Source: Escherichia coli
Lineage (GTDB): Bacteria; Pseudomonadota; Gammaproteobacteria; Enterobacterales; Enterobacteriaceae
NCBI RefSeq assembly: GCF_003334255.1
Contig: NZ_QOWU01000201.1
Strand: one strand, 5' to 3'
Length of the DNA stretch: 660 bases
Both the position numbers and the translations under genes were made by a program. Position 1 is the stretch's first letter. The number at the start of each line of letters is the position of its first letter. The notes under the pieces are model-generated. The model made no database searches, had not been told where the DNA came from, and saw nothing but the letters and a program-made list of their open reading frames with translations. Positions 1-660 of the stretch are shown piece after piece.

Positions 1-660
1 CCCTCATCCTCGCTGCGGATAAGTTTGCCGGTCAGGTCGTGGTGATAACGCTGTGTGCGGCCGTCAAAGCCGGTTTCCTGTATCAGCCGGTCGAGTACAT
101 CGTAACGGAAGGTGGTGTGGCTGCCGTTTTCACTGGTCAGGCGGATGACCCGTCCGGCAGCATCGTATTCCATACTGCGCGTCAGCCCGCCCTGCGTGGT
201 ACAGATGGCCTTTCCCCACGCATCGTACTGTGTCCCGTTTCTGCTGCCGTCCGGGGCAATGACGGCGGTCAGGTCACCGGCGATGTTGTATTCATACCGC
301 GTTTCATGGCCCTGCGTGTCTTTCACGGCAATTAACTGTCCACGGCTGTCGTATGCGCGGTACTGACTCAGCCCTTCCTCGCGGTGCACCGCCGTCATCT
401 GCCCGAAGCGGTCATGGTCATAACGGGTTACATAACCGGAACAGTCGGTGAAGCTCAGCAACTGACCGTAACGGCTCCACGTCATGGTTTTCCGGCTGCC
501 GGTGGCATCTTCCGTTGCGCAGGGTAAGTCACTGTGTGGATTATCATAACGGTAGCGGGTGATATCGCCGTCAGGGGCAGTTTCCTGAATCAGACGGCCC
601 AATTCATCATATTCCCGGCGCAATTCCAGCCCGTCAGGCCCGGTGGCTGACGTTAACTGG
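1..660 (-). CDS. rhs: Rhs-family core protein (YD-repeat region), internal fragment truncated at both window edges; RhsA/B/C-type enterobacterial core
   Basis: Seen in sequence: the reverse complement read from window position 659 gives 219 consecutive sense codons with no stop, ending at position 3. Translation begins QLTSATGPDGLELRREYDELGRLIQETAPDGDITRYRYDNPHSDLPCATEDATGS and ends SHTTFRYDVLDRLIQETGFDGRTQRYHHDLTGKLIRSEDEG. It contains repeated YD dipeptides in the Rhs/YD-repeat context (xYxYDxxGRL(I/V), spaced about 21 residues). Established knowledge: this matches, from memory, the conserved core of E. coli-type Rhs proteins; no database search was run. Paralog (rhsA, rhsB, rhsC etc.) cannot be assigned because the cores are near-identical, so the symbol is the family designation only. 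Absent from the ORF track because it runs off both edges. Confidence 0.94.
36..611 (-). repeat. Tandem array of about ten YD (Rhs) peptide-repeat units encoded on the minus strand, period about 63 nt; protein-level repeats, not identical DNA repeats
   Basis: Seen in sequence: the codons for the Y-D (or degenerate) dipeptide fall at plus-strand coordinates 606..611 (EYD), 543..548 (YRYD), 465..470 (degenerate YG), 417..422 (RYDHD), 348..353 (YRAYD), 285..290 (degenerate YEYN), 222..227 (QYD), 162..167 (EYD), 99..104 (RYD) and 36..47 (degenerate YHHD). Spacing is 60 to 69 nt. On the plus strand the recurring hexamer is atcgta or atcata, the reverse complement of tacgat or tatgat. Confidence 0.85.

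Follow-up and report, generated by a model that had tools for sequence, protein, structure and literature searches.

The stretch of Escherichia coli DNA analysed here (the window) is 660 bases long with a G+C content of 58.6%, and it almost certainly lies midway along the core, conserved and rich in G+C, of an rhsA/B/C(/F) gene, read on the minus strand and encoding what would be the mid-wall of the Rhs cocoon. The feature occupies the whole of positions 1..660 on the minus strand as an internal segment of the core open reading frame of the E. coli RhsA/B/C subfamily, and the evidence for it comes from the open frame itself, from DNA identity to annotated genes, from the match to the NCBIfam profile NF041261 and from the dN/dS ratio. 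The rhs core has been known from E. coli K-12 since the 1980s and is annotated routinely by PGAP; it is part of a repeated gene family that ranks among the longest known in E. coli and that carries annotation in thousands of genomes. The core segment in the window is already known and is entirely ordinary. The practical value of the analysis lies in annotation, as ORF lists that are limited to a window conceal genes that span the whole of it.

Reading frames on the two strands

On the minus strand, the frame that runs from position 659 down to position 3 comprises 219 codons, and its translation contains no stop; the remaining five frames contain 4, 5, 11, 14 and 15 stops. The preliminary description had claimed that the minus strand is open across the full window in one frame, and re-translation of this frame for stops found none. 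It had also called the window 100 percent coding. In an identical annotated copy, the bases outside the whole codons also belong to the gene, base 660 as part of codon 472 and bases 2-1 as part of codon 692, and this figure is therefore correct. A G+C content of 58.6% lowers the frequency of stop codons, which is what would favour reading the open frame as an accident in non-coding DNA rich in G+C. In mononucleotide shuffles of the window, however, the minus frame is open in just 9 of 20,000 cases (any of the six frames in 68 of 20,000), the expectation for independent and identically distributed bases being 4.5e-4. The translation also matches a family profile with an E-value of 6.6e-129, and annotated genes contain the identical DNA, which together leave a chance frame with a negligible probability.

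The mechanical ORF list for the window tells a different story. It holds eleven short ORFs, only two of which are at least 60 aa long, and both of these lie on the plus strand: one of 98 aa at 39..335 and one of 84 aa at 112..366, each with a GTG start. The minus-strand frame is missing from this list because the listing leaves out ORFs that run off either end of their source. The preliminary description had stated that the ORF track shows two plus-strand ORFs only, which holds for ORFs of at least 60 aa, and had warned that annotating from the track alone would mis-call the locus. This warning was well founded, as the real gene is hidden and two antisense artefacts are displayed in its place.

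Purifying selection is shown to act on the minus frame. K-12 rhsD served as the comparison sequence in this test, since codon-position counts for K-12 rhsA and rhsB, which give 3-4 differences, are uninformative. Between the window and rhsD (75% amino acid identity), the minus frame has a dS of 0.85, a dN of 0.17 and a dN/dS of 0.20; 82 of the 155 differences fall at codon position 3 of this frame, and its pN/pS is 0.30. Four of the five other registers have a pN/pS of about 1.24-1.32 against the same sequence, and the fifth has 0.52. Taken by strand, two of the plus-strand registers lie at about 1.25-1.32 and the third is the one at 0.52. This low value is a mirror of the sense signal, because the third positions of that register coincide with the sense third positions.

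These values bear directly on whether one or both of the plus-strand ORFs could be real overlapping genes, a reading that draws on their being the sole listed ORFs of at least 60 aa and on the plus-strand register with a pN/pS of 0.52. Yet this register mirrors the selection on the sense strand, and the signal of the minus frame is the stronger one by both measures (pN/pS 0.30, dN/dS 0.20). Furthermore, an NCBIfam scan of the two ORFs gave no match, and no gene matching them is annotated in any of the E. coli rhs locus records examined; the ORF at 39..335 lies wholly within the annotated rhs coding sequence, and none of the plus-strand registers shows an independent coding signal. Opposite G+C-rich genes, chance alone should produce long antisense ORFs. 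We thus hold it highly improbable that either is a real gene: both ORFs are spurious, antisense artefacts of a G+C-rich gene.

An Rfam scan of both strands of the window at E<=1 gave no match, and therefore no structured RNA explains the region. A DNA repeat search of the window found no direct repeats; the YD repeats that it encodes are too diverged to be visible as DNA repeats. The window also contains one weak inverted repeat with 18-nt arms at 252-269 and 388-405, which are 83% complementary and separated by a 118-nt spacer. This pair is probably a chance similarity within repeat-coding sequence.

Profile matches and repeat units

The preliminary description had proposed that the window encodes Rhs core, or YD-repeat, sequence, and a search of the 219-residue translation against Rhs and YD-repeat profiles gave the same answer, with very strong matches to NF041261, TIGR01643 and PF05593. 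First of all, the translation aligns collinearly with positions 481-699 of the 1261 positions of NF041261 (RHS_core, the RHS element core protein) at 431.7 bits and an E-value of 6.6e-129. NF041261 is an equivalog model with a whole-protein cutoff of 2000 bits over its 1261 positions, and the 431.7 bits of the window piece fall below this cutoff, as those of any 219-aa piece must. Against RHS_core, the full-length genes in which these 660 bases recur unchanged reach 2647 and 2648 bits, over model positions 1-1261. The cutoff is thus passed through the full-length identical genes, and for the gene to which the window itself belongs this holds on condition that its copy is intact. Second, the YD repeat model TIGR01643 matches the translation at 96.1 bits, against a cutoff of 15.8, with an E-value of 6.5e-28 and in five YD_repeat_2x stretches, the best of which covers aa 103-140. 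Third, the Pfam model PF05593 (RHS_repeat) matches six times, with i-Evalues from 1.1e-10 to 1.4e-04, and the translation contains nine Y[DEN] sites in the typical context xxGxxxRYxYDxxGRL(I/T).

The six PF05593 matches place RHS/YD repeat units along the minus-strand frame. The first unit, aa 1-32, lies at 564..659 (i-Evalue 4e-07) and is overlapped by a partial unit, aa 17-39, at 543..611 (i-Evalue 7.8e-06). These are followed by a unit at 372..476 (aa 62-96, i-Evalue 1.1e-07) and by one at 243..353 (aa 103-139, i-Evalue 3.9e-10), which TIGR01643 also detects. The last two units, at 120..227 (aa 145-180, i-Evalue 1.4e-04) and at 54..167 (aa 165-202, i-Evalue 1.1e-10), complete the series, all of them on the minus strand.

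Copies of the window and the whole gene

In a megablast search of complete E. coli genomes, the window sequence was matched in 3897 of 5426 genomes, at a median of 4 and a maximum of 7 places per genome. By identity, 1420 of the matching records stand at 99% or above and 2458 at 95-99%, and three records, of the human faecal isolates G1/2, G6/7 and G8, are 100% identical. The features under the matches listed are annotated as rhsA, rhsB, rhsC or 'RHS element core protein'. Plasmids, not chromosomes, carry 6 of the 16,622 matching places. The exact matches of G1/2, G6/7 and G8 are in genes at the rhsB and rhsA loci. In G1/2, the matching DNA lies in an intact, annotated rhsB of 1411 aa, located between nikR and yhhH, with 100% identity over codons 473-691, and the translation corresponds to residues 473-691 of its product. 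In G6/7, the exact sequence occurs twice, once in the gene at the rhsA locus (1377 aa, between yibF and yibA) and once in rhsB.

In K-12 MG1655, the DNA identity to the window is 99.5% for rhsB, 99.4% for rhsA, 97.9% for rhsC and 78% for rhsD. All 660 bases align without gaps to K-12 rhsB (b3482) and rhsA (b3593), in the same register (codons 473-691), and these alleles differ from the window by 3-4 nucleotides. K-12 RhsD (b0497), of the rhsDE subfamily, has a collinear core with 75% amino acid identity over the 219 residues (RhsD aa 477-695), but its DNA identity of just 78% marks a different subfamily. By this pattern of identities the window belongs to the rhsABCF subfamily, clade I of Jackson et al. 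2009 (PMC2935791).

Placement within the subfamily goes no further than this. From nt 82 to nt 3467, or over about 3.4 kb, the gene at the rhsB locus of G1/2 is identical to that at the rhsA locus of G6/7 (6586-10821 and 6586-10719 of the extracted loci L001 and L002), and past the PxxxxDPxGL motif at aa 1238 the two diverge completely. As the window falls within this stretch of identity between paralogs, it is not assignable to rhsA, rhsB or another copy, and its assignment to any one rhs paralog was rejected, exact copies being present at both the rhsA and the rhsB loci. The same pair of genes is a clear example of homogenized cores with swapped tips. For practical purposes, a 660-bp core read is not mappable to one rhs paralog, and assemblies and variant calls are error-prone in such a multi-copy stretch.

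The identical copies also allow the window to be set within a whole gene. The preliminary description had called the window part of an Rhs core fragment and had suggested extending it in both directions. Extension was carried out through the identical public copies, which supply an rhs gene of 4.1-4.2 kb with its start, its stop, the PxxxxDPxGL motif and a variable toxin tip. The Rhs core part of the earlier wording stands; 'fragment' fits the window and not the gene, as the identical copies are intact and full-length. From the N-terminus, the full-length protein has a DUF6531 domain at aa 46-123 (Pfam, E 6.2e-18), then the long core, and then the Rhs-associated core domain (TIGR03696, Rhs_assc_core) at aa 1170-1247, and Pfam RHS (PF03527) also matches in these genes. 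Unrelated tips come after the PxxxxDPxGL motif (aa 1238): one of 130 aa at the rhsA locus and one of 164 aa, with a DUF4329 domain, at the rhsB locus. The core has a G+C fraction of 0.618, the window one of 0.586 and the tip one of 0.374, and this contrast between core and tip matches the G+C-rich core and A+T-rich extension that are a described feature of rhs genes (PMC2935791).

Small genes stand in the immunity position at both loci, yhhH downstream of rhsB and yibA downstream of rhsA, and this gene order of tip and small gene fits a putative toxin-immunity pairing, such as has been shown for the toxic tips and immunity proteins of the Dickeya Rhs-CT/RhsI pairs (PMC3150448). Further downstream at the rhsA locus, orphan 'RHS repeat-associated core' fragments, which derive from core ends, lie among small genes (G6/7, 11612-14185 of L002; K-12, 7222-10147 of L004), including yibG, a frameshifted Imm57 gene and yibV in K-12, an arrangement that would suit toxin tips displaced along with putative immunity genes of their own. 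Beyond the rhsB locus lies yhhI, a transposase of the ISAs1 family (H-repeat).

Damaged rhs copies do occur in this species, and the window could in principle come from one of them, its open frame being a remnant of a disrupted or pseudogenised copy that gene conversion has kept close to the intact paralogs. The gene at the rhsA locus of G1/2 (6408-10531 of L008) is annotated as frameshifted, K-12 rhsE is a pseudogene, and rhsA is followed by partial pseudogenes of the 'RHS repeat-associated core' type. The frame of the window, on the other hand, is intact through all 219 codons, and the exact matches examined are all in intact genes (G1/2 rhsB, the G6/7 rhsA-locus gene and G6/7 rhsB). Compared with the intact allele of the sister strain G6/7, the G1/2 rhsA-locus gene has deletions of 2, 2 and 6 nt and one mismatch; both 2-nt deletions lie near gene nt 1241-1257, and the 6-nt deletion, at gene nt 1837-1842, removes bases that are present in the window at 233-238. 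The gene could be truly inactivated, or the frameshift could stem from a faulty assembly or consensus of multi-copy sequence. K-12 rhsE gives no match to the window and is without that part of the core, and the orphan core fragments downstream of rhsA do not contain it either. A disrupted origin is thus unlikely. We keep to the reading of the window as rhs core, an identification that nothing contradicts; the intactness, locus, expression and delivery of the window's own gene copy are not readable from the 660 bases alone.

Probable cocoon architecture and presumed delivery

Our current picture of what the window encodes comes from matches to solved structures. Among the cocoon walls of solved type VI Rhs effectors, the translation matches the sequence of Tse5 (PDB 8CP6) over chain residues 397-600 with an E-value of 1.6e-48 and that of P. 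protegens RhsA (PDB 7Q97) over residues 601-810 with an E-value of 3.5e-37; further matches are to 8QJA-D (Salmonella and other Rhs cores), Tse15 and Tre23, and teneurin chains match more weakly (E 2e-15 to 9e-05). The 219 residues comprise about six YD repeats, and from these matches we infer that the repeats fold as antiparallel beta-hairpins in the mid-wall of the Rhs beta-cocoon. As the window consists of mid-core YD repeats, it would therefore belong to the structural wall or scaffold, and not to a catalytic, toxic, variable or specificity-determining part.

The cocoon, the encapsulation and the autoproteolysis of Rhs proteins have been described (PMC8765631), and the E. coli gene may be expected to work along similar lines. 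In such a scheme, YD repeats would build the wall of a closed, hollow beta-cocoon, which in the full-length protein would enclose the toxin tip, the variable part at the C-terminus. At the core's end, an aspartyl autoprotease would cut just after PxxxxDPxGL and so free the tip inside the cocoon, and an immunity protein encoded directly downstream would neutralize the tip in the producer cell. The complex would then be carried into neighbouring bacteria by a type VI secretion spike, as in the characterized systems. At the level of the DNA, near-identical cores between paralogs serve as a substrate for RecA-dependent recombination among rhs loci; RecA-dependent unequal crossover between rhsA and rhsB gave the family its name, 'rearrangement hot spot' (PMC2935791; PMC3150448).

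Delivery requires a separate judgement. The preliminary description had called the family often associated with type VI secretion, which stands at the level of the family; for the rhsA/B/C clade, vgrG is not found nearby and the PAAR match is non-significant. In the flanks fetched at the rhsA, rhsB and rhsC loci (roughly 2-6.5 kb on the upstream side and 3.5-6 kb on the downstream side), no vgrG, hcp, Eag chaperone, separate PAAR gene or T6SS cluster is annotated. A T6SS encoded elsewhere may still deliver these proteins. Likewise, an in-silico study of EHEC describes rhsA-D as 'orphan genes' outside vgrG islands, and reports that the long rhs genes of EDL933 carry a PAAR domain (PMC7216683). 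In the full-length protein studied here, aa 2-20 match positions 51-69 of the 70 positions of Pfam PAAR_motif with a non-significant E-value of 0.22. The N-terminus of RhsB (G1/2, 6586-6645 of L001), MSGKPAARQGDMTQYGGSIVQGS..., matches only the last 19 of the 70 Pfam PAAR positions.

The term 'Rhs core protein' is thus a tested membership, while 'T6SS effector' is a family-level expectation for the rhsA/B/C clade, and delivery of this clade by T6SS is presumed in strains that have one. Alternatively, the delivery or the function of clade I cores might lie outside the canonical PAAR-VgrG T6SS route, for example in a T6SS-independent role or in a purely recombinational or immunity-reservoir one. 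The context for such a reading is that about 72% of complete E. coli genomes retain near-identical clade I cores, with about 4 copies in each, that no nearby vgrG is seen at the loci examined and that the N-terminal PAAR match is non-significant. The window's 660 bases hold nothing in its favour, and we consider it very unlikely; presumed T6SS delivery remains our working view.

The closest structural parallels are Pseudomonas aeruginosa Tse5 and P. protegens RhsA, whose mid-cocoon wall aligns end to end with the window peptide. In addition, the DUF6531/plug region at the N-terminus of the full-length E. coli protein aligns with Tse5 at the beginning of its chain and with P. protegens RhsA at residues 235-340. 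Both are distant homologues from other genera for which PAAR- or prePAAR-mediated T6SS export has been demonstrated, and in this the E. coli clade is unlike them, with its non-significant PAAR match and no neighbouring vgrG. More remote is the similarity to the TcB/TcC cocoon of Tc toxins and to metazoan teneurin, which have the same YD-repeat shell as the window (comparison in PMC8765631) but differ from it in domain context and delivery.
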